Part shown: in pieces, positions 4,649 through 33,447 of the stretch
How positions within the stretch are numbered: the stretch's first letter is position 1
Layout of the letters: each line of letters starts with the position of its first letter
NCBI GenBank assembly: GCA_016699555.1
Contig: CP064981.1
Location: forward strand, 761,603-825,602
Direction: 5' to 3'
Source of the DNA: Candidatus Iainarchaeum sp.
Lineage (GTDB): Archaea; Iainarchaeota; Iainarchaeia; Iainarchaeales; VGJJ01
DNA: 64,000 nucleotides
Notes under the pieces: generated by a model
The model's input: the letters and a program-made list of their open reading frames with translations, nothing else
Database searches by the model: none
What the model was told of the DNA's origin: nothing
Made by a program: the position numbers and the translations under genes

Positions 4649-5455
4649 TTAACTGGCTGCGCGCACAAGCTTTGGAATCTGGGCCCCAAAAAAGAGCAAG
4701 AACAACAACATCACAATCGTCCCGCTGGGGGGGATGTTCAGATAGTAGGAAGCGATGATCCCGATCAGCGTAGCGAGGATACTTGCGATCGTACTCATCA
4801 CGAGCGTCCCCTTGAATGACTTGGATAATTGCAACGCAATCAGTGTAGGTATAACTAACATCGCCGAAACCAATAGGATTCCCACGGCACGAATGCTGAT
4901 GACGACCGTCAGCGCTACCAGCAGGATAAACACGGTGTTGATGAAAATCGTTTTCTTGCTACGCAATTCAGCCAACTCTTGGTTGAAACTGCTGAAGACC
5001 AGTTGTTTGTATCCCCAGACCAAGAAGAGGACGATAAGCACGAGCATGGCGACGGCCAGTGCAATATCCAAATAGCTCAGGGACAACAGGCTGCCGATCA
5101 GATAACTGAACAGATTCACATTGAACCCGCGCGCCAATCCAATTACAATAATCCCCAATCCAACCCCGAATGAAAGAATCAAGGAAATGGCCGCATCGCC
5201 GTACAAATTCTTCTTGACCAGCTTCTGCACGACGAATCCGCCTACTACTGCGGAAATAAGCGCTGCGATGATGGGTTCGATCCCCAGCAACAAACCCAGG
5301 GCGATTCCCCCAAAGGAAAAATGGGCGATCCCATCCCCCAATAACGAAAGGCGGCGCAACACGATGAACGGGCTCATGAGCCCGCATGTGAATGCGATGA
5401 GGAAGCCTCCAAGCAAGGCTTTTTGCATAAACCCATAGGATAACAATTCAAGCAT
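4649..5455 (-). CDS. znuB: metal ABC transporter permease (ABC-3 / ZnuB-MntB family)
   Basis: 268 aa, ~8 TM helices, ABC-3 family signature region; last gene of znuACB-like operon. Confidence 0.8.
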   Translation of the reverse strand: MLELLSYGFMQKALLGGFLIAFTCGLMSPFIVLRRLSLLGDGIAHFSFGGIALGLLLGIEPIIAALISAVVGGFVVQKLVKKNLYGDAAISLILSFGVGLGIIVIGLARGFNVNLFSYLIGSLLSLSYLDIALAVAMLVLIVLFLVWGYKQLVFSSFNQELAELRSKKTIFINTVFILLVALTVVISIRAVGILLVSAMLVIPTLIALQLSKSFKGTLVMSTIASILATLIGIIASYYLNIPPSGTIVMLLFLLFFGAQIPKLVRAAS

Positions 5456-5464
5456 GTCGTTTCC

Positions 5465-6163
5465 TCATTCGTGATGGTGGTGCATGACCGCCAACTGTCC
5501 ATAGGTCTTTTTCACCAATTCAGGCGTTTCGCTGGCAGGGCCATAGCAGCACACCTGATGGTTGATGCATAATACCGATTTGCAATACGATGGAATCATC
5601 CCCACGTCGTGCGTGATCAGCATAATCGTAACATTTTCTTTATCATTCAATTGCTTCAGCAATGCATAAAACTCGCGCTGGGTCTTCAGATCGATACCTA
5701 CACTCGGCTCGTCCAAAATCAGGATTTTAGGATTGGCCTGCAAGGCTAATGCAATCACGACGCGCTGCTGTTGTCCGCCCGATAATTCCGTAAAGCGCTT
5801 GTCGTGAAAGGATTCAATGCCCAAGCGTTCATGCAAACGATGATCCAACGGCCCGTTCAAGGCCAAAATTTCATCCACGGTCGCGGGAAATAATTTGTCA
5901 ATCGTAATTTTTTGAGGCACATATCCAATCCATTTGGAGACCTGTTCGTGCGAAATAGGATTTCCGAACAATTGGATACTCCCCTTCTGAGGGGGCAACA
6001 TGCCCAATAGCAACTTCGCCAATGTGGTTTTTCCCGAACCATTGGGTCCGATGACCGCGACGAAATCCCCTTCCTTGATGGAGAAGGAAATATCGCCCAG
6101 GACGGGAAAACCATTATAGGCAAAACTCAAATCCTTGACTTTAATCGCTGCCATCACGAACAC
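5465..6163 (-). CDS. znuC: metal ABC transporter ATP-binding protein (ZnuC-like)
   Basis: Walker A GPNGSGKTT, signature LSGGQQQRV, Walker B ILILDEP, His-rich C-terminus HHHHE. Confidence 0.85.
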   Translation of the reverse strand: MFVMAAIKVKDLSFAYNGFPVLGDISFSIKEGDFVAVIGPNGSGKTTLAKLLLGMLPPQKGSIQLFGNPISHEQVSKWIGYVPQKITIDKLFPATVDEILALNGPLDHRLHERLGIESFHDKRFTELSGGQQQRVVIALALQANPKILILDEPSVGIDLKTQREFYALLKQLNDKENVTIMLITHDVGMIPSYCKSVLCINHQVCCYGPASETPELVKKTYGQLAVMHHHHE

Positions 6164-7107
6164 TCTAAGGCCAGCTTTAAATGATTGAGGTTCTCTCGCA
6201 TAATAGAGAAATAATCCTCGTCGGGATTACTACTTCCTTCCGCGGGATTCAATTCCAATGTTTGAGCCCCCACTTCCTGTGCAATCGCATTGGAAACGCG
6301 GGGATCGACTAATTCTTCATAAAAAATATACTTCAAATCATGCTCTTTAGCCGCATCGACCAATTCTCTAATTTGATCCGGAGTGGGTTCGGATTCGGGT
6401 TCTAATCCAGAAATATGAATGGTCTGGAATCCATAATCATTTGCCAGATAGGAAAAGGCATTATGGCTGACTAGGACAATATCTTTATTGCATTGCGAAA
6501 GACCCTGTGCGTATTCTTGATCTAATTGCATTAAATTGGCAATTAATTGCTGGGTGTTTTGTTCGTACAACGTTGCATTATCGGGAAATGCATTCATTAA
6601 TCCCGCACTAATGTTTTGAGCCATTACTTGCATATTTTTTGGAGAAAGCCAAATATGGGGGTCTTTTCCCGTGTGCTCTTCCTCATGCTCTTCTTCATGC
6701 GCATGCTCTTCCATGTGTTCTTCCTCATGCTCATGCTCGTGCTCTTCATCGCCGTCCAACAAAACAATTCCTTTTTCCGCGTGAATTACCGTAATAGGGG
6801 CAGAACGGCTTTCGATGAATTCTCCTTCAAGGTGTTCAAATTCTAATCCCATTGTAATGAATGCGCGCGCATTTTGAAATGAAACAAATTCTTGGGGAGA
6901 AGGCTCATAATCATGGGGCTCAATCCCGGAAGGAACAATCGAGAATACCTCGGCCGTATCTCCAACAATCTTTTTGGTCAGATCCTGTAGTGGAAAAAAT
7001 GTGGTTGCAATTGCCATTGAATGGTTTTGCCCAGTGGGTTGAGGATTTGAAATACATCCCATCGCCACGATTACTGCTATTAATCCAATTGCAACAAACC
7101 ACTTCAT
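6154..7107 (-). CDS. znuA: metal ABC transporter substrate-binding lipoprotein with His/Glu-rich loop (ZnuA-like)
   Basis: Start set at MKWFVAIGLIAVIVAMGC (signal peptide + lipobox); cluster-9 SBP fold; loop DGDEEHEHEHEEEHMEEHAHEEEHEEEH typical of Zn-specific ZnuA; longer in-frame start at 7233 possible. Confidence 0.8.
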   Translation of the reverse strand: MKWFVAIGLIAVIVAMGCISNPQPTGQNHSMAIATTFFPLQDLTKKIVGDTAEVFSIVPSGIEPHDYEPSPQEFVSFQNARAFITMGLEFEHLEGEFIESRSAPITVIHAEKGIVLLDGDEEHEHEHEEEHMEEHAHEEEHEEEHTGKDPHIWLSPKNMQVMAQNISAGLMNAFPDNATLYEQNTQQLIANLMQLDQEYAQGLSQCNKDIVLVSHNAFSYLANDYGFQTIHISGLEPESEPTPDQIRELVDAAKEHDLKYIFYEELVDPRVSNAIAQEVGAQTLELNPAEGSSNPDEDYFSIMRENLNHLKLALECS

Positions 7108-7233
7108 TTTGTTCAACCCCGCTTGCATTTTAAAAAAAATCTGGGATTTTTCGCACAAGGAGTTGGAGAACTGCTTATGGGAGCCCACCCAGACAGGTAA
7201 AGAATAGAAAGGCATTATCAATTTATAAGGCAA

Positions 7234-7286
7234 ATGTTAATAACTATGTATCGCTTTAGATCCTAAAATTAATAAGAGGTAAAAAA
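7234..7286. promoter_or_regulatory. divergent promoter/operator region between znuA-like operon and nikR
   Basis: 53 nt AT-rich spacer with TTAATAA...TTAATAA direct repeat and TATA-like runs; position only. Confidence 0.3.
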
Positions 7287-7673
7287 ATGACCGAAATCAT
7301 TAGCATGTCGCTGGATGAGAAGACACTCCAAAATCTGGATAGTTTGCAGAAAGAACTGGGTTCCACCGGCAGAAGCGAAACCATCCGCCAGTGCATCCGC
7401 ATGTTCGCCAATGAAAAAAAACAATTCCAAAAGATGAGCGGTGAAGTGAATGGAGTGGTATTGGTCGTGCACCCTGATGACCACTCCGAGACCATCACGG
7501 ATATCCGCCACCACTACCAAGCGATCATCAAGACCCAACTCCATAACCATCTCGAGAACCACGTGTGTCTGGAACTGTTCATGGTCAAGGGACTCGGAGA
7601 TACCGTCAAGAAATTCGTCTCATCCTTGCAGGCAAGCCGAAAAACAGACCTCGTGAAACTCATTATCGTGTAA
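7287..7673 (+). CDS. nikR: NikR family nickel-responsive transcriptional regulator
   Basis: N-terminal ribbon-helix-helix (ISMSLDEKTLQNLDSL...GRSETIRQCIR) aligns with E. coli NikR; C-terminal domain keeps Ni ligands (HHY...HNHLENHVC). Confidence 0.85.
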   Translation: MTEIISMSLDEKTLQNLDSLQKELGSTGRSETIRQCIRMFANEKKQFQKMSGEVNGVVLVVHPDDHSETITDIRHHYQAIIKTQLHNHLENHVCLELFMVKGLGDTVKKFVSSLQASRKTDLVKLIIV

Positions 7674-8108: not shown

Positions 8109-8624
8109 TTACGAAAACATCTTGTCTTCCAATTTTTGTAGAATGTAGTCTTGGAGCGCTCCTGCTTTGTAATATTGCTTTTTGAGTTTGGGTTCCAACG
8201 AAGGAAACTGCCCTATGGTGCCACGACATTTTTTCGACCCGCAATTGCATTCCATTGCCCATTCTCGATAGCGCCCAAATTTCTCATGGGTCCACTCAGT
8301 CGTTGAATAATCAAATGTGAGTTCTTCGCCTTTCTTTACATCCCTGAGCGCAAATAGCTCATTCTCCTTTCTTATTCCACAATTGGGAGCACATGAATGA
8401 TTGATGAACACATAAGGTGCTGCAAGATCGATATATTTTTTGTCACCAATCTGCAAGGGATTGGATATCTTTTCTTTTCCGGATGCATATCTTCTCTTGA
8501 GCTCGTTCACCCCAATTCTTTCGCCGCGCATCAAACAAAGAGCTTCGCCCTTTTTTATGTTCTTGGAAGCAACAACCCCAGTTCCTTGAATGGCTGATTC
8601 AATTACTTGGATGTGATTAAACAT
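8109..8624 (-). CDS. SET domain protein-lysine methyltransferase
   Basis: 171 aa; SET signature ...NHSCAPNC... and ELTFDY, post-SET Cys cluster CNCGSKKCRG. Confidence 0.8.
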   Translation of the reverse strand: MFNHIQVIESAIQGTGVVASKNIKKGEALCLMRGERIGVNELKRRYASGKEKISNPLQIGDKKYIDLAAPYVFINHSCAPNCGIRKENELFALRDVKKGEELTFDYSTTEWTHEKFGRYREWAMECNCGSKKCRGTIGQFPSLEPKLKKQYYKAGALQDYILQKLEDKMFS

Positions 8625-13280: not shown

Positions 13281-13946
13281 ATGACGGAAACCCCTGCCCA
13301 ACTCAAGGCGCGCTGGAAGAAAATAGAGCACCAACTCGAAAAGCTCTATGCCAACCCCAAAGTAGGGCTGGACTTCCAAAATCCCTTCCAATTGACCATT
13401 GCCACGATCCTGAGCGCCCAATGCACGGACATACGCGTGAACATGGTGACGAAAGAATTATTCAAGAAATACAAGCAACCCGAAGACTTCTTACGCGTTC
13501 CCGGAAAGGAACTGCAGCAGGACATCCGTTCAACGGGCTTCTACAAGAACAAAGCCAAGAACATCCGCGGGTGCTGCCAGCGACTCATTGAGGTGTTCGG
13601 GGGAAAAGTACCCCAAACCATGGAAGAACTTATTACACTCCCGGGCGTTGGAAGGAAGACCGCCAACATCGTATTATGGGCAGGCTATGGAAAACTCGAA
13701 GGAATCGCCGTCGACACGCACGTGTTCCGGGTTTCACGACGACTGGGATTGGCAAAGGGAAACAATCCCCAAAAAGTAGAACAAGAACTCGTGCAGATCG
13801 TGGACAAACCCAAATGGGGAACGTTCACGGACGTACTCATCTGGCATGGCCGAAAAGTATGCGACGCGCGCCTGCCCAAGTGCACGCCATGCGTCCTATT
13901 CAAAAACAAATTATGCCCCCGAATAGGAGTAGTCAAGCATGCGTAG
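13281..13946 (+). CDS. nth: endonuclease III (HhH-GPD, 4Fe-4S)
   Basis: HhH LPGVGRKTANIVL, catalytic region, C-terminal C-x6-C-x2-C-x5-C (CDARLPKCTPCVLFKNKLC). Confidence 0.85.
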   Translation: MTETPAQLKARWKKIEHQLEKLYANPKVGLDFQNPFQLTIATILSAQCTDIRVNMVTKELFKKYKQPEDFLRVPGKELQQDIRSTGFYKNKAKNIRGCCQRLIEVFGGKVPQTMEELITLPGVGRKTANIVLWAGYGKLEGIAVDTHVFRVSRRLGLAKGNNPQKVEQELVQIVDKPKWGTFTDVLIWHGRKVCDARLPKCTPCVLFKNKLCPRIGVVKHA

Positions 13947-14601: not shown

Positions 14602-15126
14602 ATGGAAGTACGCGGCCGCATCCAAGACATCGCTGAGACTCATCGCCTCATCGCCGAGTTGGGGGGAATCAAACTCAACACCTACGCATTCGAGGATCGC
14701 ATCTATTTTTTGCCCGGAACCACTTCACTCGAAAAAGGATACGTGCGCATCCGCTCTCCCCCGGGATATGACAATTCCCAGCGCTTTCAGATCACCAAGA
14801 AAATAACACAGGATGGGCAGCGACTGGAAGTGTATCGCAGCTTTGCCAGCGACCTCGAACGCGCAAAAGCCAAGATCGCAGGGCACTGGATCGCATGCAT
14901 CATCGCCCGAAAAGGAACGCAATACCGACTAGGCAATGGGCTGATGTATGTGGAAGAAATCGAAGAATTCGGGAATAGCATCGAAGCCCTTTACTCCAGC
15001 GAAGTCGAAGGCAGGGAATGGCTGCACCAACTGAATGCCACGGAAATATCCATGCACTCCATGCCCTTGCAATTCATGATCCATAAAAATATGCCCAAGC
15101 ATGAGCCCGCCCCAAAACCTAATTAA
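14602..15126 (+). CDS. CYTH-like domain protein (triphosphate tunnel metalloenzyme family), tentative
   Basis: N-terminal EVRGRI...E pattern reminiscent of CYTH ExExK start; 174 aa; weak. Confidence 0.35.
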   Translation: MEVRGRIQDIAETHRLIAELGGIKLNTYAFEDRIYFLPGTTSLEKGYVRIRSPPGYDNSQRFQITKKITQDGQRLEVYRSFASDLERAKAKIAGHWIACIIARKGTQYRLGNGLMYVEEIEEFGNSIEALYSSEVEGREWLHQLNATEISMHSMPLQFMIHKNMPKHEPAPKPN

Positions 15127-15148
15127 GCCCTCCAACCCCTTTTTGCGC

Positions 15149-16873
15149 ATGGCCATCAATAAAGAAATTGCAGCCATCTTCTATGCCATCGCCGATCTGC
15201 TCGACTTGCAAGGAGTCGAATGGAAACCCATTGCATTCCGCAAAGCCGCACGGACGCTGGAGAATTATTCCGAGCCCATGGACAAAATCGTCAAAGCAAA
15301 AGGAATCAAAGGCGTGATGGAACTTCCCGGAATCGGAGAAGGGATTGGAAAAAAGATCGTGCAGTACGTCGAAGAAGGAAAGATCGATGAATATGAAGAG
15401 CTGAAGAAAGAGATTCCTGCCGGCGTACGCCTCATGCTGAATGTCCCCGGAATGGGCCCCAAAAAAGCCGCTCGCCTCTACAAGGAACTCAAAATCGACT
15501 CGCTCGAAAAACTCGAGGCATTCGCCAAAGAAGGAAAAATACGCGCACTGAGCGGATTCGGAGAAAAGAGCGAGCAAGATATCCTCATGGGATTGGAGCT
15601 GGTCAAGAAAGGACAAGAACGCAAGCTCATGGGAATCATCCTCCCCTACGCGCGCGAGCTCGCAAAAAAAATCAATTCCATCCCGGGAGTGCAACGCGTC
15701 GAACTCGCGGGGAGCCTGCGCCGACGCAGAGAGACGGTCAAGGACATCGACATCCTCGCGCTCGCAAAAGATGGAAAGAAAGTCATGGATGCATTCGTGA
15801 AGCTGCCCGATGTTGAGAAAGTGGTCTCCAAAGGAGACACCAAAACAGCCGTCATCCTCAAGATGGGACTGAATTGCGACCTACGCGTGCTTTCGCCGGA
15901 AGTCTATGGCGCGGGACTGGTGCACTTCACGGGAAGCAAAGAACACAACGTCGCATTGCGCATGCTGGCCATCAAGAAAGGGATGAAATTGGACGAGTAT
16001 GGGCTCTTCGACAACAAAAGCGGCAAAAACCTCGCGTGCAAGAACGAAGAAGACGTCTATGCGCGCTTGGGCATGCAATACATCCCTCCCGAGATGCGCG
16101 AGAATACTGGCGAGATCGAGCTCGCGCAACAGAAAAAAATACCCGAGCTCATCGGCTATGACGCCATCCATGGGGATTTGCACACCCACACGAATTGGAG
16201 CGATGGCGCCAACACCACGGAAGAAATGGTCGTGCGCGCCGTAGAACTCGGATACGACTACTATGCGATTACCGACCACTCCAAGAGCGACGTCATCGCC
16301 AATGGACTGAATGAAAAACGCGTCAAAGAACACTTCAAGGAAATTGACGCGCTGCAAAAGAAATTCCCACAGATCCAATTGCTGAAAGGGGCGGAAGTAG
16401 CCATCTTGAGCAACGGGAAATTGGACTATGGCGCTGAAACCCTCAAGGAGATGGACATCGTCGTCGGAAGCATCCACTCCGGGTTCAAGACCCCACCCAA
16501 AGAGATGACCAAGCGCCTGCTCACGGCGATGGAAAATGAATACCTCACCTTTCTCGGACACCCTACCGGTAGGCTCCTGAACCAGCGCAATCCCTATGAG
16601 TATGACATCGAAAAAATACTCGAAACCGCCGCATCCAACCGCATCGCCGTCGAAGTGAATGCGTTTCCCTCGCGCATGGACTTCGACGCCGATCACATCC
16701 GGCTGGCGCTGCAAAAGAAAGTCAAGCTCGTCATCAATACCGACTCCCACTCCACCCAAAATCTGGACTTCATGGAGTTCGGCATCGCACAAGCGCGCAG
16801 GGGATGGGCGAAAAAAGAGGACGTGCTCAATGCGCTGCCCTGGAAAGCATTCCAAAGAGAAGTATTGCGTTAG
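15149..16873 (+). CDS. polX: DNA polymerase X family protein with C-terminal PHP phosphoesterase domain
   Basis: Pol beta-like HhH and nucleotidyltransferase (GSLRRRRETVKDIDIL) regions, C-terminal PHP HGDLHTHTNWSDG; start at MAINKEIAAIF. Confidence 0.85.
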   Translation: MAINKEIAAIFYAIADLLDLQGVEWKPIAFRKAARTLENYSEPMDKIVKAKGIKGVMELPGIGEGIGKKIVQYVEEGKIDEYEELKKEIPAGVRLMLNVPGMGPKKAARLYKELKIDSLEKLEAFAKEGKIRALSGFGEKSEQDILMGLELVKKGQERKLMGIILPYARELAKKINSIPGVQRVELAGSLRRRRETVKDIDILALAKDGKKVMDAFVKLPDVEKVVSKGDTKTAVILKMGLNCDLRVLSPEVYGAGLVHFTGSKEHNVALRMLAIKKGMKLDEYGLFDNKSGKNLACKNEEDVYARLGMQYIPPEMRENTGEIELAQQKKIPELIGYDAIHGDLHTHTNWSDGANTTEEMVVRAVELGYDYYAITDHSKSDVIANGLNEKRVKEHFKEIDALQKKFPQIQLLKGAEVAILSNGKLDYGAETLKEMDIVVGSIHSGFKTPPKEMTKRLLTAMENEYLTFLGHPTGRLLNQRNPYEYDIEKILETAASNRIAVEVNAFPSRMDFDADHIRLALQKKVKLVINTDSHSTQNLDFMEFGIAQARRGWAKKEDVLNALPWKAFQREVLR

Positions 16874-17150
16874 CCGCATACAGGCAGGATGAAAAAATAC
16901 TCTTTTTTTCTCGGAAAGAGAAAAAATAATCCAGTTTTTCCTTGTTGTGCAAAAAATTTCTCATGCGCCGATATGTATAACGAGCCAAAAAGTAGATTTA
17001 AAAGTGCAACTCATGGAACTGTATGGATTCACCCGCGATGTTGGCGTTGTTTTTTCGCCGATTACGGGCAATTACCTACGCATTTACCTACAGATTCGAT
17101 TCAGTTATCAGAGCCAACTCAGTCATCAAACTTCCCAGACGTGATATGCC

Positions 17151-17957
17151 ATGATGTCCATCCCCGTAATGAAAACATTCACCGAAAACCTCCACCAATT
17201 ATGTATCGATTTCCAGCAGAACGTCAAAGAGAGCGAGCACCCCAGCATCGATAAGAAAGTACAGCTCTCCGCGGAGACGCTCGAACAATTCCTCCTCACC
17301 CAGCAATTCACCCCCATTCAAGAGAATACGCTCCTGAAATTGGATTCAATCGCCCAACTCGTCCCCCAAACGCAGGCGGCCTATCGCTATTACCAAGAAG
17401 ACCTGGAACGCTCCTATGCCCAAGAGCTCGTGGCCAATAACGAGTCCGAACTCGATTTCACCCACTCCCACCTGCGCCGCGAGGGATTATTGGCATCGAA
17501 AGAAGCGCATTTCTCCAACCTCAGCGAACACGATCGCGTGCTGGTCATCGGAACGGGTTATTTCCCCCTGCATGCCATGGTCTATGCCGGGCAGTTCAAT
17601 GCCAAAGTCATCGGACTCGAGACCCAGCAGCACGTCCGCGAGCATGCGACGCGTGTGGTGGAAAGCATGGAGATGGGCAACCAAATCAAGATCCAGGATA
17701 TCCGCAACCTCTATGCGCAAGCCGCCAAAGCCAATGTCATTTTCGTGTCGCGCGACATGAACGATAAAGTGCCACTCATCAATTCCCTCGCCGAACACCT
17801 CAAACCCGGAACGCGTGTGATGTGCCGCACCGGGTTTGGGTTGCGCGCCATGTTGCATGCGCACGTCCCCCACAAGCAATTGCAGGGATTCACGCAAATG
17901 GGCGTATTGGATGCAGGAAAGAGCAGCTTGCAGAGCTCGCTCTGCTTATTACGCTAA
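17151..17957 (+). CDS. nicotianamine synthase-like protein (archaeal NAS/CntL-like)
   Basis: RVLVIGTGYFPLHAMVYA ~ NAS KVAFVGSGPLPLTSIVLA; HLKPGTRVMCRTGFGLRAMLHAHV ~ NAS HL.K.MAPGA.L.LRSAHGARAFLYP.V; ~120 aa N-terminal extension. Confidence 0.6.
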   Translation: MMSIPVMKTFTENLHQLCIDFQQNVKESEHPSIDKKVQLSAETLEQFLLTQQFTPIQENTLLKLDSIAQLVPQTQAAYRYYQEDLERSYAQELVANNESELDFTHSHLRREGLLASKEAHFSNLSEHDRVLVIGTGYFPLHAMVYAGQFNAKVIGLETQQHVREHATRVVESMEMGNQIKIQDIRNLYAQAAKANVIFVSRDMNDKVPLINSLAEHLKPGTRVMCRTGFGLRAMLHAHVPHKQLQGFTQMGVLDAGKSSLQSSLCLLR

Positions 17958-17967
17958 AATAAACTCG

Positions 17968-18552
17968 TTACCGCCCACGGGAAACTGTGCGCGCGGCAAT
18001 GGTAAGGTGGTGCCCACAATGAGGACAATACTTATCCCGCCAATCCACTAATTTTTCACACGAGCGACAGCGAATAAACTTCCCAGGAATACGCTTGGGA
18101 TGCTCACGCAACCATTTTTGGGTCTGCATGAGGGATAACAATCGTTGCTCGATCTTCGCGGCATTCGGACCATAGAATATTTGGTGGTGCACCACTTCGT
18201 TGTGCTCATAAGCCAAATGCAATTCCTTTGAAATCACTCCCTTGCTCTCGACTTCCACGAGATCATGCAAGTAGATCTCCAGCACGACCTCGGGATACCG
18301 CAACTGTTCCGCTTGCTTGGTGAGAAAGAGCATGCGCTGCGTCGTCACGGCAATGACGCCACTCATGCGCGACGCGACAGGGACATTTTCCTTCACCGGA
18401 ATGCGTTGCGGCAGCATCCCAAACAAGGGCTTTTCTTCCTCTACCCATTGCGCTTCCAAGCGGAACCCATCCATTTGCATGGGGAAGAAGAATAGCACGG
18501 ACTCGTTGGGATGCAAAAAAATATGCGAGATCCATTCCATGCTCATATGCAT
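17968..18552 (-). CDS. hypothetical protein, possible PH-like N-domain with C-terminal zinc ribbon
   Basis: C-terminal CRSC-x13-CPHC; N-terminal GVIAVTTQRMLFLTK resembles bacterial PH fold; last gene of secreted-protein/SPase operon. Confidence 0.4.
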   Translation of the reverse strand: MHMSMEWISHIFLHPNESVLFFFPMQMDGFRLEAQWVEEEKPLFGMLPQRIPVKENVPVASRMSGVIAVTTQRMLFLTKQAEQLRYPEVVLEIYLHDLVEVESKGVISKELHLAYEHNEVVHHQIFYGPNAAKIEQRLLSLMQTQKWLREHPKRIPGKFIRCRSCEKLVDWRDKYCPHCGHHLTIAARTVSRGR

Positions 18553-18573
18553 GCGAGCCGGAAATTGGACTAT

Positions 18574-19113
18574 TTAATTGGAGACTGCAGGCGGGTTGGT
18601 GCCCACTACCTTGCCTATCACAAATCCCTCATCCACAAACCCATAATCCAGGCTATCAAAGCCAGCCTCGGCGTTATCCGAAATCACAAACACTTTGTGC
18701 AGCGGGACTACGCGCGAGGTAGCGGGAGAAGGATATTTGAACAAAGGAAAGGAATCCGACGTGAATGGTTGGCCGACCGGGTGCGTTAACGCTACCACTC
18801 CATTTACTGCGATATCCCCTGCCGGAGTGATTTGCACATTATCTCCAGGCAAACCAACTAAGCGCTTCACGCGCAAGCTATTGTCGACATTGAAATCGAT
18901 GATGACGATGTCATTGCGTTGCAGGGGAAAGAACGCGTAGTAATCGATCCCGATCCGGATCAAATCCCCCTCACGCAATGCGGGTTCCATCGAGTGCCCA
19001 GAAACGGATTTATCTATGCAAGGGTGAGCGCTACAATAATCGGATGCCATCGAAGCAGTCAGACAGCCGGCAAGGAAAAGGACAAGGGATAAGATCGACA
19101 GTGCGGCGCGCAT
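18574..19113 (-). CDS. signal peptidase I paralog (S26) with lipoprotein-type signal
   Basis: Box B SGHSMEPAL, box D VKRLVGLPGD, box E ISDNAEAGFDS; N-terminus MRAALSILSLVLFLAGC lipobox. Confidence 0.65.
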   Translation of the reverse strand: MRAALSILSLVLFLAGCLTASMASDYCSAHPCIDKSVSGHSMEPALREGDLIRIGIDYYAFFPLQRNDIVIIDFNVDNSLRVKRLVGLPGDNVQITPAGDIAVNGVVALTHPVGQPFTSDSFPLFKYPSPATSRVVPLHKVFVISDNAEAGFDSLDYGFVDEGFVIGKVVGTNPPAVSN

Positions 19114-19143
19114 ACGAGTAGATGTGTGCCGCAGTTTAATGCA

Positions 19144-20115
19144 TTATCTGCACACGTTCACGCACACACCGACCGTTCCGAACCACCAAGTGGGAGGAGT
19201 ATAAAGCGGGGGAGTGGGACCTGCATCGGTGGACGCGAAAGCAAGCGCATTCGCGAGCTGCGGATCGACGGATGCGAGCTTCTGCTTGCCGTCTATATCC
19301 CCAGCCGTGCTCGGGTCGCCTTCTCCGCCTGTTTCCGTTAAAGGATCAGTCCCAGTGCCAGAAGGCTCGGTAACGCCACCAGAGTAGCCGACATCGGGAC
19401 CACCCACGACGCCTCCATCCATGACGCCTACTGCGCTTACTTTACACTCACAAGTTGGACTATCAGGCGCTCCCGTGTTCTGGCATGACTCGCCAGGATT
19501 GGGACAGCTCCCTCCACACCATGTGACGGTTGGGCCCACGACCCCTGCTGGAGGGCTGGCAGTGTTCTTTTTACAGGTGGCTCCCATCCCCGTATACACT
19601 ACCCCACCCCCACCAACGTACGGGGACTGTTGCCCGTTCGGGGCGTTAATCAGATGAAACGGCGGCGGAAGCAATGGAGGGCTGGGGGGATAGACAATGG
19701 TAAAGGACTGAACCGGCACGACCGTGTGCGGAATATCAATTCCAGTGGGATAGCACATGCTCGCAGCCAAATTAGGATGGGATGCCGGGCACGAAGGAGG
19801 AGAACAAACCCCGATAGCGTTGTTGGTGCTCAACCCGCCCGAACTCGGCAGCACGAGAGGACCTACCGCCCAAGGACAGCTCAAGCGGATCAACTTATTG
19901 TTGGCCGGAGCGCCCTGGGCCAGGACGACTTTTGGAGCTAAATAATTCACTTTGACCAACCCGGGGATTTGGGATTGCACATTGATGACTTCCGTGGGCT
20001 GCAAGAACTGTATTGCAAAGACGCCAGCGACCACGAGCAATGCGACGATGACGAACGAAATCAATGGATGGAGTCGTGTCATGGTCACACCTTTAGGCAT
20101 TCTTGGTGCAGACAT
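19144..20115 (-). CDS. signal-anchored secreted Pro/Gly/Cys-rich cell-surface protein
   Basis: N-terminal hydrophobic helix with VFA-IQ cleavage-like site, Pro/Gly/Thr/Cys-rich mature region; start may be at internal Met (20082). Confidence 0.5.
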   Translation of the reverse strand: MSAPRMPKGVTMTRLHPLISFVIVALLVVAGVFAIQFLQPTEVINVQSQIPGLVKVNYLAPKVVLAQGAPANNKLIRLSCPWAVGPLVLPSSGGLSTNNAIGVCSPPSCPASHPNLAASMCYPTGIDIPHTVVPVQSFTIVYPPSPPLLPPPFHLINAPNGQQSPYVGGGGVVYTGMGATCKKNTASPPAGVVGPTVTWCGGSCPNPGESCQNTGAPDSPTCECKVSAVGVMDGGVVGGPDVGYSGGVTEPSGTGTDPLTETGGEGDPSTAGDIDGKQKLASVDPQLANALAFASTDAGPTPPLYTPPTWWFGTVGVCVNVCR

Positions 20116-20875
20116 TCACGATGCTCCCGACGTATGCAGAAAAGAATGTGATATTGTAATTGATAATCGAGCCATTGCCCGCGTAGACGGGAGACAGGAC
20201 ATAGGACATCCCCAATCCGCCCGGTTCGAAATAGACGCCCTTAGAGGTATAAGCGGTCCCGCCAATGGTGGGGCAAGCAATATCGGACGCGCCATTAGGG
20301 CAATTAGCAGCGGAGTAATTATTCATCAGATCCTGCAAGGAAAAAGGTTGCCCGGGCGCAGCGGTCGCAATCGGCCCCCCGGCCACAGGACAGCGCATGT
20401 AAATGGTATCATTCCCGCCTGCAGCCGCCAACACCTGCGCCAACGTCCAGGTTTCGAGATGATTCGCATTCAACGCCACGTTCGCCGTGTTCGCGGTAAC
20501 TGCACTTTCCGCAACGACACCCGAACCCGTTCCCCATGCAGCGGCTTGCACGAACTTCTGCATCGTGGCTAAAGGTTCCGGAACCGGAACGCCTGCAACG
20601 GTTGGCGTGATTGGCGCGGGCCGACCGGAGGGATAACCGCTAAAGGCTTGGGTGAAATCGATATCGCCCACGCGATGACTGACAGTGCCACTTCCGGGAG
20701 TCGATCCGGCTTGCGCGCTGACCCCGACGATGAGGCCCAAAACGACCAATCCCGCGATCGCCACCACCAGCAAGTGCGTGGGGATTGAAACAGAAGGCAT
20801 TGCAGGCGTCTGCGTGGAAGTCGCATCTTGTTTCGAATGATTTTTTGCAGCAAAGCGTCCGGACATGTGACACAC
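20093..20875 (-). CDS. signal-anchored secreted Gly/Ala/Thr-rich protein
   Basis: N-terminal TM helix LLVVAIAGLVVLGLIVGVSA-QAG (AXA site). Confidence 0.5.
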   Translation of the reverse strand: MCHMSGRFAAKNHSKQDATSTQTPAMPSVSIPTHLLVVAIAGLVVLGLIVGVSAQAGSTPGSGTVSHRVGDIDFTQAFSGYPSGRPAPITPTVAGVPVPEPLATMQKFVQAAAWGTGSGVVAESAVTANTANVALNANHLETWTLAQVLAAAGGNDTIYMRCPVAGGPIATAAPGQPFSLQDLMNNYSAANCPNGASDIACPTIGGTAYTSKGVYFEPGGLGMSYVLSPVYAGNGSIINYNITFFSAYVGSIVNVCTKNA

Positions 20876-20940: not shown

Positions 20941-22026
20941 TCAGCCGAAAAACTCGTTCAAACGCTTCTGTTTGGGAGGAGAAGCGAAGCCACCCACCCT
21001 CAACCCCACACGACGTAAGGGAAGCGGGGCATTGGATAGGAGGGATTGGAACAGCTGTTCGACCTCCGAGAACAATTGCTCGGAAGAAACGCACGCGACA
21101 TTGAGCGTCGTGGAGCGTGTCATCTGCTTGAGGGCGATGTCCACTCCCACCACGGAGATCTGGGTGAAGAACTTCCCTTGCGCAGCGGTCTCATCCCACA
21201 ACTCCAATGCTTTCTCGCGCACCAACGCGCGCAATTCATTCCAATCCTGCGTGTCGCGCTGCAACGTCCAGATGCTGGAGCGCTGCTGCTTCTCATAATT
21301 CGTCTCCAGCGGCGACTCATCGATCCCACGCGACGCATGGAAAAAATATTGCCCGCGCGCCGCACCGAAAAGCGCAACCAATTCCCCCGCGCCGCACGCG
21401 CGCAATTGCGCAATGGTGTGGATGTTCTTCTCCACGAGTTGTTGCTCGGTCTTCGGGCCAATCCCCAACAGCGATTTCACCGGCAATGGATCCAAGAACG
21501 ATTGCACGCTTTCGGGTTTGACGATCGTGAACCCATTGGGCTTCTGGAAATCGGAAGCGATCTTGGCCAACAACTTATTGGGCGCAATGCCCACCGAACA
21601 GCCCAGGTTGAATTCCTTCTGGATCTTTTGCTGGAACTCGCGCATCAGCCTTTCGGCATGCGCATAGTCGCCTTGCGTTTTTTGTGTTAAATCGGCATAT
21701 GCCTCATCGATGCTCGCCATTTCCACGGCATCGCCATACGCGAATAGCCGTGTGAAAATCTGATCCGATATCTGCCCATACAATGTATGATTCACCGGCA
21801 CAAAATGGCCCTTCGCACAAAGCTGTTTGGCTTGCACGATGGGCATTCCGGCACGAACCCCTAACTTACGCGCATCATACGAGGCTGAGCTCACCACCCC
21901 CGAGTCCAATGTCCTTCCGGAGAAGACGCAGACCACAATGGGTTCGTTCTTCCACTCGGGATGCGCATTCTGCTCGATCGCAGCGAAGAAGGCATTCATG
22001 TCCACGTGCGCGACGATCCGAGGCAT
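20941..22026 (-). CDS. dinB: DNA polymerase IV (Y-family, DinB/Dbh)
   Basis: MPRIVAHVDMNAFFAAIEQ..., SIDEAYADLT, HhH and little-finger regions. Confidence 0.9.
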   Translation of the reverse strand: MPRIVAHVDMNAFFAAIEQNAHPEWKNEPIVVCVFSGRTLDSGVVSSASYDARKLGVRAGMPIVQAKQLCAKGHFVPVNHTLYGQISDQIFTRLFAYGDAVEMASIDEAYADLTQKTQGDYAHAERLMREFQQKIQKEFNLGCSVGIAPNKLLAKIASDFQKPNGFTIVKPESVQSFLDPLPVKSLLGIGPKTEQQLVEKNIHTIAQLRACGAGELVALFGAARGQYFFHASRGIDESPLETNYEKQQRSSIWTLQRDTQDWNELRALVREKALELWDETAAQGKFFTQISVVGVDIALKQMTRSTTLNVACVSSEQLFSEVEQLFQSLLSNAPLPLRRVGLRVGGFASPPKQKRLNEFFG

Positions 22027-22109
22027 GGCATCTTCCTCCTGGGGAAATACTATTGCTTGGACCATGGGTAATTAAAAGTCCTTTTCCGTAGGGAGTTCAT
22101 ATCACGCTC

Positions 22110-23156: not shown

Positions 23157-23894
23157 CTAGATCCCGGGAGCCGCACCCAACCAGGAGCCGATCAAGTAGC
23201 CCGCAAGCGCTGCGCCGATCCCGATGAGGGCCAGCTCGATACCCGAGCGCCACCACACCACCTTGGTGAAGCGCCCCTTGATGGCGCCGGCGACGAACAA
23301 GACCACGAGCGAGAAGGGAACCGTGAACTCGACAGCCACCTGCACAGGAAACAAGAAGAAAGGGATGAGCGGAAAAACGGCTCCCACCAATGCAGCGATA
23401 CCCACCACGATTCCCGAACGCAAGGGGGATTCGCCGTCCTTGAAGAGCTTCAGCTCCTCTTCCATCATCACACCCAACCAACGTTCGCGGTTAGAAGTGA
23501 GTTTTTGCACGACCATCTCCAATTCCTTGCCGCGGAAGCCCTTCGCATAATAGATGCGCCGCACTTCCTCGCGTTCTTCCTCGGGCAAGCGCTCGATCTC
23601 ATCCATTTCTCTTCGCTTCTCGCGGTCGTAGAATTCCAATGCGGCTTTGCTGGAAGTGTATGCAACCGCGCCCATGGAAATCCCTTCCGCAAACATTGCG
23701 GCAAGGCCTGAGATGATGATGAGGCGCGCGTCTTGTGTTGCGGTAGCGACCCCGAGCACGAGGCCTAATACGTTCACGAGCCCGTCTTGCCCGCCCAAAA
23801 TGAGATCGCGCAGCCACTCTCCACCTTGCTCATCATGGGGGTCGTGTCCCTTCGCATGGGGGGAGTGCCAATTACGCGCGGGTTTTCGTGCCAT
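23157..23894 (-). CDS. VIT1/CCC1 family Fe/Mn transporter
   Basis: LRDLILGGQDGLVNVLGLVLGVA signature, acidic cytoplasmic loop, C-terminal TM bundle. Confidence 0.8.
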   Translation of the reverse strand: MARKPARNWHSPHAKGHDPHDEQGGEWLRDLILGGQDGLVNVLGLVLGVATATQDARLIIISGLAAMFAEGISMGAVAYTSSKAALEFYDREKRREMDEIERLPEEEREEVRRIYYAKGFRGKELEMVVQKLTSNRERWLGVMMEEELKLFKDGESPLRSGIVVGIAALVGAVFPLIPFFLFPVQVAVEFTVPFSLVVLFVAGAIKGRFTKVVWWRSGIELALIGIGAALAGYLIGSWLGAAPGI

Positions 23895-26904: not shown

Positions 26905-27768
26905 TTATTTGGTTTGCGTGCGCTTCCCGCCCTTTACGCGCAAGACCGCGCACATCTGGACTTTGCGCGGGGAGAATTGGAGGACTTTCCGGATGTCTTC
27001 GACGCGAGCGCTCCCTTTCACTTCCTGCAATCCTTTCTCGAGCTTTTTCCACATCTCGTGCAGGGGTTTCTTGTTGGAAACGAAAGCATAGCAGTGGATC
27101 GTGCCCCCCGCGGGAGAAAGGCAATTTACCGCGGCCGCAAGGTATTTCGTCGCACTCTCAGGGGCGGGCATGATGACGTGATCGCACTGTCCAAGAATGT
27201 GCCCAACTTTCTTCACGTCCGCATGCATCGGGATCACGATGTCTTGGACCTTGTTCTTGCGCACATTCATCTCCAGCCAGGGAATCGCATCCGGGTTCCA
27301 TTCGATGGCGAATACGCGCGCGGGCTTGGCGTGCTTGGCGAGCGTGATGGCGTAAGGACCCACACCCGCAAAGAAAACGGCGACAGTCTCTCCTTTTTTC
27401 ACATACGAAGCGATGCGCTGGCGTTCAGTACTCAAACGCGGAGAGAAGAACACTTTCCCGGGCATCAACTCGAATTCGCAATTCCACTCTTTGTAAGCGG
27501 TAGAGGAGATTTTTTTTCCTGCGAGAAAACGCACCTTCTCCAAGCGAAATTTCCCCTCATGCCCGCCGACTTTCTCATAGACGGATTCGACGTTCTTGAC
27601 GGCGTGCAATAATGCCGAGGCGATTTTCTTTTTCTTCTTCTGCAGCTTCCGCGGGATCTCGATGAGGGCCAATTTGCCCAGGACATCGTACGCGAAAATA
27701 GCCTCTTTCAGCTCGGCCGGGGAAAGGATTTGAGTTAATAGCTCGCGAAAGGAAGGGGCGTGCGTCAT
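26905..27768 (-). CDS. trm5: tRNA (guanine37-N1)-methyltransferase Trm5/Taw2 family
   Basis: FSPRLSTERQRI...VAVFFAGVGPYAITLAKH and IEWNPDAI match archaeal Trm5 motifs; start at MTHAPSF. Confidence 0.8.
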   Translation of the reverse strand: MTHAPSFRELLTQILSPAELKEAIFAYDVLGKLALIEIPRKLQKKKKKIASALLHAVKNVESVYEKVGGHEGKFRLEKVRFLAGKKISSTAYKEWNCEFELMPGKVFFSPRLSTERQRIASYVKKGETVAVFFAGVGPYAITLAKHAKPARVFAIEWNPDAIPWLEMNVRKNKVQDIVIPMHADVKKVGHILGQCDHVIMPAPESATKYLAAAVNCLSPAGGTIHCYAFVSNKKPLHEMWKKLEKGLQEVKGSARVEDIRKVLQFSPRKVQMCAVLRVKGGKRTQTK

Positions 27769-27811
27769 ACTACAGAGATTCGGGATTTTCCTTATAAGGC
27801 TCTGCCTGGGC

Positions 27812-28684
27812 ATGATAGGTATGGCATTGGACTTGAATGCATTCGTCTATGACAATTTCATCCGCCCGATGATCGATCCCAGCGTGCAGGGATACAATCC
27901 CGTCAACACAATCGTGTATGGGATCATCCTCCTGGGAATCGCATTCTATGTCATCTATCCCTTCCTCAACAAGCACGGGATCAAATTCGACTTCGCCTTC
28001 TTGCAGATGCTTTTACCCTACATCGTCTTCGGCAGCAGCCTGCGCGTGTTGGAGGACCAACAACTACTCATGCGCAGCGCGAACCCGCTCGAGTTCGGAT
28101 TCTATCTCTTCACTCCTGGGATTTGGTTCCTCACATTCGCATTCGTCGCCATCGGGATGCTCATCGCGTGGTTCGCGCAGAAGAAATTCAATCACCGATT
28201 CCACACCATCGCAACCCTCTTCGGCGCGCTCGTCGCTGCTCCGCTAGTGCTCTACAATCTATTGCAATTCACGGAATGGATTGCACTTCTCGCGATCGTC
28301 GCGCTCGCGGGCATCCTCTCTTATGCCGTATTCTGGATCGGCAAACGCCAGCAGTGGAGATTCTTGGAGAACCCACTCGCCAAAGCCGCATTCTTCGGAC
28401 AGCTCCTCGATGCATCCGCGACATTCATCGCATTGCAATTCTTTTCCTGCGGCGAACAGCACTTCCTGCCACGCTTACTCTTCGGAGCGTTTGGCCCGGT
28501 TTCTTTCTTCTTCGTGAAGATTCCGCTGATGCTGTTGGTGCTGCATTACATCCACAAGGAATTCATGCACGACGAAAAAGCCGATAAGAACCTGCTGGGA
28601 TTCATCCTCCTCTTCCTCGCCATTTTGGGTTTTGCCACGGGGATGAGGGATTTATTGACAGTGGCAGTGGGAACGTGCAATTAA
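27812..28684 (+). CDS. archaeal polytopic membrane protein (DUF63-like)
   Basis: ~8 TM helices; N-terminal Y..F..P...GYN.VNT.VYGIILL resembles DUF63. Confidence 0.4.
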   Translation: MIGMALDLNAFVYDNFIRPMIDPSVQGYNPVNTIVYGIILLGIAFYVIYPFLNKHGIKFDFAFLQMLLPYIVFGSSLRVLEDQQLLMRSANPLEFGFYLFTPGIWFLTFAFVAIGMLIAWFAQKKFNHRFHTIATLFGALVAAPLVLYNLLQFTEWIALLAIVALAGILSYAVFWIGKRQQWRFLENPLAKAAFFGQLLDASATFIALQFFSCGEQHFLPRLLFGAFGPVSFFFVKIPLMLLVLHYIHKEFMHDEKADKNLLGFILLFLAILGFATGMRDLLTVAVGTCN

Positions 28685-31967: not shown

Positions 31968-32765
31968 ATGATGGAACTCGAAGCCGCCAAGGAATCGCTG
32001 GATCGCGCGCTGGCGCGGAAAGACCTCATCATGTTGATCGGGGACTGTCGCGTGCTCTATCACGGAAGGGCTGCCAGCAATCTCCCGCTCGGCTCGCGCC
32101 TGCTGCTCATCAAGGGAGATGGGAGCTTCGCCATCCACCAGAACAAGTTACTACGACCCACCAATTACCTCATGGCCAACTCTTGGTCCACAAAAATGGA
32201 GGACGGAAAGCTCGTGATCGCGGCCACGAAACGAACGCCAAAGGAATCGCTCACGGTGACGCTGGAAAAGGTAGAGATGCTCAACCTCCACACGATGGAA
32301 GACAAGAAGAGCGACTTCAAGTTAGTCGGAAGCGAACGCGAACTATCCAATCAGCTGATGGATGATCTCGAAGTGCTGGAGAAAGGACTCAAACCCCTCA
32401 AACAAGAATCGCATCTCCGCAAGGGGATGATCGATATCCTTGCCGAGGATAAGGATGGCCACCTCGTCGTCATCGAATTGAAACGCAGGCAAGCCGATTA
32501 TGACTCGGTGATGCAGCTGCAGCGCTACGTGACGGAAGTCAAAAAGACCAAGGGAAGGACCACGCGCGGCATCTTGGTGGCGCCAGAAATACGCAAGACC
32601 GCGATGGAATTGCTGAAGAACAATGGATTGGAATTCCGTTCCTACCAATTCGACGTCTCACAACCCAAGGCAACGATTGCGGGAATTGAAAAGAAACAAA
32701 GAACTATTTTCGAAGCGTTCGATGAAAATACAATTACTGCAAAGAAAAAGGAAACAAAAAAATAA
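31968..32765 (+). CDS. nucS: endonuclease NucS/EndoMS
   Basis: N-terminal dimerization domain (GDCRVLYHGRA...LLLIKGDGSFAIHQN) and C-terminal RecB-like nuclease (D...ELK). Confidence 0.85.
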   Translation: MMELEAAKESLDRALARKDLIMLIGDCRVLYHGRAASNLPLGSRLLLIKGDGSFAIHQNKLLRPTNYLMANSWSTKMEDGKLVIAATKRTPKESLTVTLEKVEMLNLHTMEDKKSDFKLVGSERELSNQLMDDLEVLEKGLKPLKQESHLRKGMIDILAEDKDGHLVVIELKRRQADYDSVMQLQRYVTEVKKTKGRTTRGILVAPEIRKTAMELLKNNGLEFRSYQFDVSQPKATIAGIEKKQRTIFEAFDENTITAKKKETKK

Positions 32766-32834: not shown

Positions 32835-33341
32835 TTTCGTCTTCCATCCGTCATACAACAATGGAACGCCCGTGACAATGGCCAACAACGCGGAACCGTA
32901 CATTCCCACCACGCTGGGGAAGAATGCGATCAGCACGAATGCAATGGCATTGAGCACGCCCACTCCATAATAGAATTTGGAGCGAGGCTTCCAAGTGTAA
33001 CCCGTTGCCAAAAAGCCAATGGCCATCAACAACGCCCAGTATCCCCATGCCTTGAAAAACAAGGGAACGATTTTCCATACGGCGAGCCAGTGGTAGACCA
33101 TCCCCAGCACGGAGATGAGCAACCATACCTTTACCACGTCCAATTTCATGGCATTAGGCACCCATTTGAGCATGGCTGCGACACCGATCACCGTCAAGAC
33201 ACTCCACAAAATCATCGGATTGGGAAAATTGGGATCCGTGAGCAGGAATTGGTACACCCCATAGCCCACCAAGGAAATCAATCCCCACAAGAAAATACTT
33301 TTACCAAAGTGATTCATGTTAACCCTCCAAAGGATTACCAT
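32832..33341 (-). CDS. integral membrane protein, hypothetical
   Basis: 5 predicted TM helices, Trp-rich; start may be MNHFGK (33317). Confidence 0.45.
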   Translation of the reverse strand: MVILWRVNMNHFGKSIFLWGLISLVGYGVYQFLLTDPNFPNPMILWSVLTVIGVAAMLKWVPNAMKLDVVKVWLLISVLGMVYHWLAVWKIVPLFFKAWGYWALLMAIGFLATGYTWKPRSKFYYGVGVLNAIAFVLIAFFPSVVGMYGSALLAIVTGVPLLYDGWKTK

Positions 33342-33447
33342 TTCTGAGTGGAATACCCTTTATAGATGCGATTTATTCACCCTATTCGCGCCAAAATATA
33401 GGATTAAAAGCGCCCGAATCGTTCTTGGGGGGAGAGGGGTACTCATT

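Follow-up and report, generated by a model that had tools for sequence, protein, structure and literature searches.

The 64-kb window analysed here, a stretch of 64,000 nucleotides from contig CP064981.1 of Candidatus Iainarchaeum sp. (assembly GCA_016699555.1; positions are counted from its first letter), encodes a 268-residue protein (open reading frame (ORF) 17151-17957, forward strand) that belongs to the nicotianamine synthase (NAS) family, that is, to the NAS/MtNAS/CntL superfamily. The assignment follows from a Pfam score above threshold, from a fold that matches those of MtNAS and CntL, and from the presence of both the catalytic glutamate and the S-adenosylmethionine (SAM) binding motif. 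The locus as a whole is probably a stand-alone gene for an MtNAS-like enzyme of this family, with a promoter of its own and a long 5' untranslated region (5'UTR) that is not a riboswitch. In the database, the identical protein is recorded as a hypothetical protein (IPJ89_04200, Candidatus Iainarchaeum, DPANN), encoded on a 1.05-Mb contig of a metagenome-assembled genome. The first-pass annotation, made from the letters of this stretch, had recognised the gene correctly; it adds a divergent new member to a known family.

Family membership and fold

The Pfam NAS profile (PF03059) matches residues 79–254 of the protein over model positions 69–257 with a score of 41.5 bits (E 1.3e-10; gathering score 27.1), and the precomputed Pfam assignment of proteins P0001-P0004 is likewise PF03059. 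The two core motifs by which the gene was initially recognised are present, VLVIGTGYFPL (G134/G136/P139) and EHLKPGTRVMCRTGFGLRAML. Among sequences of the Protein Data Bank, the top phmmer matches are MtNAS (E 3e-7) and then CntL, and a profile made from 41 family members, including the Iainarchaeal clade, aligns with MtNAS end to end (residues 10–261, E 5e-53) and with CntL at E 1e-27. When 1.84 billion representatives were searched exhaustively with HMMER, 399 relatives reached E <= 1e-3. E is better than 1e-30 for only three 50%-identity clusters, each exactly 268 residues long, and the next match has E 4e-20. The clade to which the protein belongs is small, confined to Iainarchaeia and of a fixed length of 268 residues. 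Two of the relatives, P0006 and P0010, carry the NCBI label "nicotianamine synthase family protein".

The AlphaFold2 model of the protein (predicted local distance difference test (pLDDT) 79.5, predicted template modelling score (pTM) 0.77) consists of five N-terminal helices (residues 5–27, 35–49, 55–68, 72–95 and 106–121) followed by an alternating β/α domain, with pLDDTs of 87–94 over residues 111–200. Its top Foldseek matches, which extend over the full length, are MtNAS (template modelling (TM) score 0.69–0.73, 265–274 columns) and CntL (TM 0.73), whereas ordinary methyltransferases match the Rossmann half only (TMq ~0.45). The depth of the AlphaFold2 alignment and the covariation tests described below are limited by the small number of orthologues: word-indexed protein searches gave 4–8 proteins, and a scan of JGI metagenomes added one locus (L007), which is incomplete and lacks upstream DNA.

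The helices in front of the SAM-binding motif had been taken for an N-terminal extension of ~120 residues without a counterpart in plant NAS. They are nothing of the kind: residues 1 to ~122 are the canonical N-terminal helical domain of the NAS family, because the protein is colinear with MtNAS, with CntL and with the plant-based Pfam model. The phmmer alignment pairs residues 85–260 with residues 80–256 of the MtNAS chain, many of the relatives found by HMMER align from query position 14–44 onwards, and position 69 of the largely plant-derived Pfam model falls on residue 79, which leaves at most ~10 extra residues. The modelled domain matches the helical domain of MtNAS and CntL. The impression of an extension arose from counting all residues ahead of the GxGxxP motif as an addition.

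The ATG at position 17151 as the start of the gene is backed by third-position substitutions in codons 3–6. The gene is under purifying selection: relative to its counterpart in locus L006, amino-acid identity is 96% and third-position identity is 68%.

Active site

Residue conservation was assessed in 118 aligned sequences, comprising 117 family proteins of 225–310 residues and an MtNAS fragment. For MtNAS, Glu81 and Tyr107 have been proposed as the catalytic pair that deprotonates the acceptor amine (PMC10491745), and the equivalent mutants of AtNAS1, E77Q and Y106F, are inactive (PMC10248798). The glutamate is retained as E86 (within LERSYAQE), which corresponds to E81 of MtNAS, E84 of CntL and E77 of AtNAS1; it is kept in 115 of the 118 sequences and is invariant in the four close homologues. 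The other family-conserved residues that are retained include R110 (kept in 84 sequences), E118 and a set of C-terminal domain motifs that are invariant or nearly so across the alignment, namely G134-x-G136-x-x-P139, E157, K206, R226-T227 and G230-x-R232. G134, G136 and P139 are strictly invariant, and E157, the acidic residue after β2, stands in a D/E column.

The position of Tyr107 is occupied by Glu111. This column contains Y in 39, F in 39, T in 10, L in 6, N in 6 and E in 4 of the sequences, and Glu is confined to the Iainarchaeal clade. With Tyr in about a third of the alignment, the column does not define the prokaryotic family. Of the catalytic residues whose absence, according to the first-pass annotation, would speak against a NAS, the glutamate is therefore present and the tyrosine is replaced, the latter at a position that the prokaryotic family does not conserve. 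Further substitutions distinguish the clade. The Tyr-rich segment of the family, Y-P-L-Y-x-R-[FY], reads H-S-H-L-R-R-E, GSGPFP reads GTGYFP (Y137 for P), and the segment following β4, A-[LVA]-L-A-x-P-K, reads S-R-D-M-N-D-K, with R201-D202 in place of the A-L of the family. As the post-β4 motif lines the acceptor site in class I SAM enzymes, we infer that the acceptor pocket of the clade has been remodelled.

In the proposed mechanism, the two-domain enzyme (N-terminal helical and Rossmann domains) would bind SAM and, most likely, transfer its 3-amino-3-carboxypropyl (aminobutyrate) group to the amino group of a small acceptor, with Glu86 acting as the base. The retention of R110, E118, K206, R226 and R232 suggests that, as in MtNAS, the acceptor is small and amino-acid-like; it may nevertheless differ from glutamate or histidine because the pocket segment is remodelled (Glu111, H105/H107 and R201-D202). 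As in Methanothermobacter, the enzyme would work without partners of the CntM or CntK type, and it would yield a nicotianamine-like polyamino-carboxylate chelator. The gene would be transcribed from the conserved promoter described in the next section and translated from a transcript with a Shine-Dalgarno-led 5'UTR of ~125 nt, in which a short hairpin or inverted repeat could serve a regulator.

Several observations weigh against this proposal. The segment H105-S-H107-L-R-R110-E111 contains no tyrosine, and since Glu111 replaces the residue whose loss inactivates AtNAS1 (Y106F), the chemistry or the acceptor may differ. A sister lineage within the same 268-residue clade (P0005/P0157, loci L009/L010, 6001-6807) has an alanine at the position of the catalytic glutamate, which suggests that activity was lost or the chemistry changed in that lineage. 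The clade is only 16–25% identical to the other relatives (alignment A4), and the NAS-like protein is 37–38% identical to those of loci L008/L009, where the neighbouring genes are 55–75% identical. The N-terminal domain of the AlphaFold2 model has moderate confidence (pLDDT 50–82), the transcription start and the extent of the 5'UTR are predicted, and no metal-related gene adjoins the NAS-like gene, its conserved neighbours being DNA-repair polymerases.

Promoter

The NAS-like gene is separated from the stop codon of the preceding gene for a PolX-type DNA polymerase (16873) by a gap of 277 nt, so that the originally annotated interval (16874-17957) begins immediately after that stop. Among relatives the length of the gap is kept (187–386 nt) and most of its sequence is not conserved. 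A block within it (Table 1) is ~82–98% identical across L006, L001, L004 and L005, compared with 44–68% identity to the window at the third codon positions of the adjacent gene over these four loci (44–49% for L004 and L005). The block is non-coding, since it lacks 3-nt codon periodicity and since indels and, in L005, a stop disrupt the frame in relatives.

Within the conserved block, ATGTA precedes TTTAWAA by exactly 24 nt from start to start, a spacing found in all seven distinct loci, with TTTATAA as the box in the distant ones. The arrangement ATGTA-N19-TTTAWAA occurs once per locus, upstream of the NAS-like gene, and has no other copy in the window or in the loci; it is likely to be a gene-specific upstream element followed by a TATA box. 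The TTTAAAA box of the window is preceded by the purine-rich AAAAAGTAGA, which resembles a transcription factor B recognition element (BRE). The block as a whole is read as a BRE/TATA promoter of the archaeal kind, with a factor-binding element upstream. The window contains no second copy of the conserved DNA block, and the single match in species-representative genomes is the orthologous locus L006.

Transcription is predicted to start at ~17023-17030, which would give a 5'UTR of ~125 nt; promoter conservation reaches ~8 nt past the predicted start. The distance from TATA to ATG is 154 nt in the window and 78–215 nt across the seven loci, whereas the six other genes of the window with a clear TATA (9978, 13281, 20875, 23894, 54853 and 61954) have it 28–33 nt from the start codon, a spacing that suggests that many genes of this genome are transcribed as leaderless mRNAs. 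Because of this difference, the NAS-like gene probably has a 5'UTR that is unusually long for the genome. The ~280-nt leader originally described thus survives as a gap of 277 nt and a long 5'UTR, but the gap is intergenic, and the conserved TATA predicts about half of the proposed length.

Archaeal RNA polymerase terminates at oligo-T, and the AT-rich region at the beginning of the gap is probably the termination region of PolX. It includes a perfect 9-bp A/U inverted repeat, TTTTTTCTC/GAGAAAAAA (16904-16926), which forms a stem in the minimum free energy (MFE) fold and is partly kept in relatives.

Two other interpretations of the gap were rejected. A small protein (ORFs 16889-17254, 121 residues; 16947-17144; and 16827-16988 on the reverse strand) is contradicted by the lack of codon periodicity and by 1-nt indels and a stop in relatives. 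An operator shared with the znuA-nikR region was also considered; the TATA spacing there is different, and no further copy turned up in a 12-mer search that allowed two mismatches. TATGTAT, similar to ATATGTAT of the NAS promoter block, does occur in the 53 nt between the divergent znuA and nikR genes (7234-7286), and this likeness is probably a coincidence.

5' untranslated region

The first-pass annotation pointed to a GGCG...CGCC hairpin in the leader as a possible attenuator or riboswitch. The hairpin itself is real: GGCG-TTGTTTTTT-CGCC at 17043-17059 is extended to a 7-bp stem (17040-17062; -8.4 kcal/mol, local z -1.83). That the upstream region is a riboswitch or attenuator built around it, sensing a metal, SAM or the product, is very unlikely. 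The idea draws on the 5'UTR being unusually long, which is a trait conserved across the seven loci, on the presence of the hairpin in the five close loci (88.6% of cells paired), where one pair is compensatory and the window copy contains a G-U wobble, and on a T6 run (17050-17055) that could in principle be an archaeal oligo-T terminator. However, this run sits inside the hairpin loop and not 3' of the stem, and a search of 16700-18100 for a stem followed by a T-run gave zero terminator sites. The covariation score of the hairpin was reached by 105 of 500 shuffles, with only five informative loci, and the hairpin is missing from L008 and L009. At ~80 nt from the Shine-Dalgarno (SD) site, it cannot mask that site.

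The folding statistics of the region are in keeping with this. Folding z-scores are close to zero for the window gap (0.09) and the predicted 5'UTR (0.05) and range from -0.02 to -1.42 in relatives (L001 -0.02, L006 -0.54, L004 -1.42), and the consensus fold of four loci has -4.2 kcal/mol and almost no covariation. A search of Rfam over 16800-17250 at E <= 10 returned only a chance small RNA match on the opposite strand (E 5); the gap contains no known RNA families or tRNAs, and a scan of the window at gathering level gives two tRNAs only. Thus, the 5'UTR appears to be mostly unstructured, and no support was found for a riboswitch or a classical attenuator. The hairpin could equally be a palindromic DNA operator (TTGGCG-N9-CGCCAA).

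Beyond the hairpin, a tandem GCAWTTACCTAC repeat (17068-17091) and the SD site, neither the sequence nor the length of the 5'UTR is conserved. The repeat comes after the hairpin; its TACCTAC element is present in two copies in L006 and L001, and L004 and L005 have one related copy. The five close loci hardly vary in CYTCCCAGACGTGAT, the sequence directly ahead of the ATG. This sequence includes the SD-like GACGTGAT, which ends 5 nt ahead of the ATG and is presumably complementary to the archaeal 16S rRNA 3' end, AUCACCUCC; the window itself contains no 16S gene. The same place is taken by CTCCCAGGTGA (AGGTGA) in L009 and by GACGAGGT (GAGGT) in L008. We read GACGTGAT as an SD site.

Table 1. 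Positions of the NAS-like gene, its upstream elements, neighbouring and metal-related genes, and the ATGTA-N19-TTTAWAA arrangement in the window and in orthologous loci
Feature	Position	Strand	Basis or remarks
ZnuCBA	4649-7233	-	Pfam
NikR-like	7287-7673	+	Divergent from Znu genes
PolX-type DNA polymerase	15101-16873	+	HHH_8, DNA_pol_B_thumb and PHP domains (Pfam)
AT-rich region after PolX stop	16874..16940	+	T7 at 16903-16909; 9-bp A/U inverted repeat
Non-coding promoter block	16971..17033	+	ATGTA 16973-16977; TATA-like TTTAAAA 16997-17003
Hairpin/inverted repeat GTTGGCG-(U-rich 9-nt loop)-CGCCGAT	17040..17062	+	~+12 to +35 of predicted transcript
Tandem direct repeat GCAATTACCTAC / GCATTTACCTAC, 12-nt period	17068..17091	+	Repeat family D2
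Conserved block CTTCCCAGACGTGATATGCC 5' of ATG	17130..17150	+	Conservation across loci
N-terminal helical domain, ~residues 1-122	17151..17516	+	Model helices; alignment with N-terminal domain of MtNAS/CntL
C-terminal Rossmann-type SAM-binding domain, ~residues 123-268, and stop codon	17517..17957	+	pLDDT; alignment; Pfam NAS, residues 79-254
Convergent downstream gene	17968-18552	-	Weak, sub-threshold bacterial PH and zinc-ribbon matches
VIT1	23157-23894	-	Pfam
MgtE	48817-49839	+	Pfam
ATGTA-N19-TTTAWAA, window	16973-17003
ATGTA-N19-TTTAWAA, L001	4817-4847
ATGTA-N19-TTTAWAA, L004	2159-2189
ATGTA-N19-TTTAWAA, L005	508-538
ATGTA-N19-TTTAWAA, L006	3731-3761
ATGTA-N19-TTTAWAA, L008	5815-5845
ATGTA-N19-TTTAWAA, L009	5899-5929

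Genomic neighbourhood

The NAS-like gene is probably monocistronic and stands alone under its own promoter, since the downstream gene is convergent and searches of the window found no DAO, AdoMet_dc, CobW or Fur homologue. The order of PolX, a long gap and the NAS-like gene is kept in every orthologous locus, even where the proteins are only 37–38% identical. In L008 and L009, the NAS-like gene is directly followed by a convergent gene for a DinB-type polymerase and then by thioredoxin and VIT1; in the window, four reverse-strand genes (17968-20875) are inserted ahead of DinB (20941-22065). The stretch of conserved neighbours is longer than 10 kb and is made up of unrelated housekeeping genes (ScpA, a KaiC-like ATPase, thymidylate kinase (dNK), adenylate kinase (ADK) and VIT1), and the adjacency of PolX, the NAS-like gene and DinB therefore reads as general synteny and not as an operon.

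The metal-related genes that the first-pass annotation placed nearby do exist (VIT1, ZnuABC/NikR and MgtE), but they lie 5–31 kb away and are neither adjacent to the NAS-like gene nor co-transcribed with it. CntM- or CntK-like partners, which it suggested looking for, were not found within the 64-kb window: in the 34 ORFs scanned with Pfam, which cover ~4.6–38 kb of the window and MgtE, there is no opine dehydrogenase, racemase or COG0523 partner, and tblastn searches with the partner proteins of relatives found no DAO, AdoMet_dc, CobW or Fur homologue in the window. Among the genes seen beside NAS-like genes of relatives, NikR is the single one with a window homologue, which belongs to the Znu locus.

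In more typical relatives, NAS-like genes do occur in explicit metal contexts. In L011 (4448-7160), P0007 is encoded in an overlapping string of DAO (FAD oxidoreductase), NAS and AdoMet_dc-like genes, beside a heavy-metal P-type ATPase, which may represent an uncharacterised nicotianamine-like or polyamine pathway. In L012 (6001-9650), a NAS-CobW (COG0523) pair stands beside NikR, HypA and HypC/D/E/F, and in L013 (5480-8376) such a pair is divergent from a Fur-family regulator; the NAS-CobW/COG0523 pairing is thus recurrent. These contexts support a metal-chelator role for the family and, by homology only, for the Iainarchaeal clade.

Further features of the surroundings were noted. The PolX ORF as listed has 590 residues, 16 more than its orthologues (574), and overlaps the preceding ORF (14602-15126); its true start is probably ~16 codons downstream of the listed one (15101-15150). 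DNA-repair genes cluster in the window (an HhH-GPD glycosylase at 13281-13946, PolX, DinB and NucS at 31968-32765). The four inserted genes encode the weakly matching bacterial PH/zinc-ribbon protein, a signal peptidase of family S26 and two proteins (323 and 260 residues) without Pfam matches, which are rich in Gly, Pro, Thr and Val and may be secreted or surface proteins. Elsewhere, the window encodes a 170-residue SET-domain protein (8109-8624), an 872-residue protein with putative metal-binding motifs of the MopE type (33316-35934) and a TYW2/Trm5-type enzyme (26905-27813), whose family includes SAM aminocarboxypropyl transferases and is unrelated to NAS.

Alternative functions

The NAS fold may have been put to a new use, in which the protein would be an aminocarboxypropyl (or other SAM-alkyl) transferase acting on another acceptor, with a product that is not a nicotianamine-type metallophore. 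Candidates would be a polyamine-like or compatible-solute compound, or a modification linked to the flanking DNA-repair genes. This is rather unlikely, although the remodelled active-site segment (E111, H105/H107, Y137 and R201-D202 in place of Y/F, Y, P and A-L of the family), the large and lineage-specific divergence, the loss of the catalytic glutamate in one lineage and the lack of a metal partner nearby all point in its direction. A link to DNA repair would draw on the arrangement of PolX and DinB around the NAS-like gene, with HhH-GPD upstream, which persists even at 37% protein identity; but that arrangement is part of the long synteny of housekeeping genes, and the NAS-like gene is under a promoter of its own and faces a convergent gene downstream. 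Moreover, the invariants that bind SAM and the substrate carboxylate (R110, E118, K206, R226 and R232) are kept, as the MtNAS-like function would have it. A still bolder reading joins the two parts of the locus, with a functionally shifted clade enzyme that makes an undescribed SAM-derived molecule and an undescribed metal- or SAM-responsive circuit that controls it through ATGTA-N19-TATA, the long 5'UTR and the hairpin or operator; this combination is likewise rather unlikely.

An ordinary SAM methyltransferase of the protein-L-isoaspartate O-methyltransferase (PCMT) type is highly improbable. The Pfam PCMT profile does score above its cutoff (25.1 versus 20.3 bits), JGI labels P0004 a "protein-L-isoaspartate O-methyltransferase", the UniRef name is also of a methyltransferase type, and lysine and RNA methyltransferases are among the structural matches of the Rossmann domain. 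However, the PCMT match spans only residues 120–226, the generic Rossmann core, whereas the NAS match is stronger and involves both domains. With the specific profile TIGR00080 (pimt) the protein reaches 20.7, where the cutoff is 159, the only full-length structural matches are MtNAS and CntL, with no PCMT structure among the top ones, and the NAS-specific residues E86, R110, E118, K206 and R226-T227 are present. AZE synthase (AzeJ/VioH) was also considered and rejected: its structures are not in the top 50 Foldseek matches, and the paper in which both nicotianamine and DPANN occur names DPANN in its references only.

Implications

If the MtNAS-like enzyme is active, a genome-reduced DPANN archaeon makes a nicotianamine-like chelator from SAM with a single gene, which would bear on metal acquisition or buffering in such small cells. 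No publication linking nicotianamine to Iainarchaeota/Diapherotrites was found in the literature searched. Related proteins are already labelled by NCBI as members of the NAS family, and current understanding is not overturned. The locus is modestly interesting for its substituted catalytic Tyr position, for the wide divergence between genera while the length stays fixed at 268 residues and for its conserved gene-specific promoter with a long 5'UTR. Given its altered catalytic segment, the clade could reasonably be targeted in the search for a new nicotianamine-type product, and the strongly conserved promoter together with the long 5'UTR offers a small, clean example of gene-specific regulation in DPANN.

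Comparison with known systems

The best match in both sequence and structure is MtNAS (MTH675, the thermonicotianamine synthase of Methanothermobacter thermautotrophicus; PDB ids: 3FPE, 3FPF, 3FPG and 3O31). The two proteins are similar in length and in their two-domain architecture, are colinear end to end, and share the catalytic glutamate (E81 and E86), the GxGxxP SAM motif and the equivalents of K206, R226 and R232. MtNAS, too, is encoded by an archaeal gene that stands alone and requires no partner of the CntM type (PMC10491745). They differ in that identity in the structural alignment is ~16–18%, FYFYPRY of MtNAS is replaced by HSHLRRE (Tyr107 by Glu111) and AALAEPK by VSRDMNDK, and the host here has a mesophile-type DPANN genome and is not a methanogen.

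CntL, the D/L-histidine 2-aminobutanoyltransferase of the staphylopine, pseudopaline and yersinopine pathways (PDB ids: 7C7M and 7C9M), has the same fold and an equivalent of the catalytic glutamate (E84), and SAM-dependent transfer of aminobutyrate would be expected of the Iainarchaeal protein. Unlike CntL, the latter scores only 35.4 bits against the NCBIfam equivalog NF033601 (cutoff 350), and its gene is not part of a cnt operon, with no CntM, CntK or Cnt transporters near it or in the 34 scanned ORFs. With plant and fungal NAS (PF03059, AtNAS1), the protein shares a score above the gathering threshold and the equivalent of E77. The equivalent of Y106 is not conserved, the C-terminal autoinhibitory extension of plant enzymes is absent, as in other short prokaryotic forms (PMC10248798), and formation of the azetidine ring is not expected.

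The NAS-like proteins of other DPANN archaea and bacteria (P0007, P0010/P0158 and P0020) match the clade profile at E 1e-20 to 1e-15, are 259–268 residues long and contain the same invariants. Their genes are found in the metal contexts that the Iainarchaeal clade lacks (Fur, CobW/COG0523, NikR/Hyp, P-type ATPase and DAO-NAS-AdoMet_dc).

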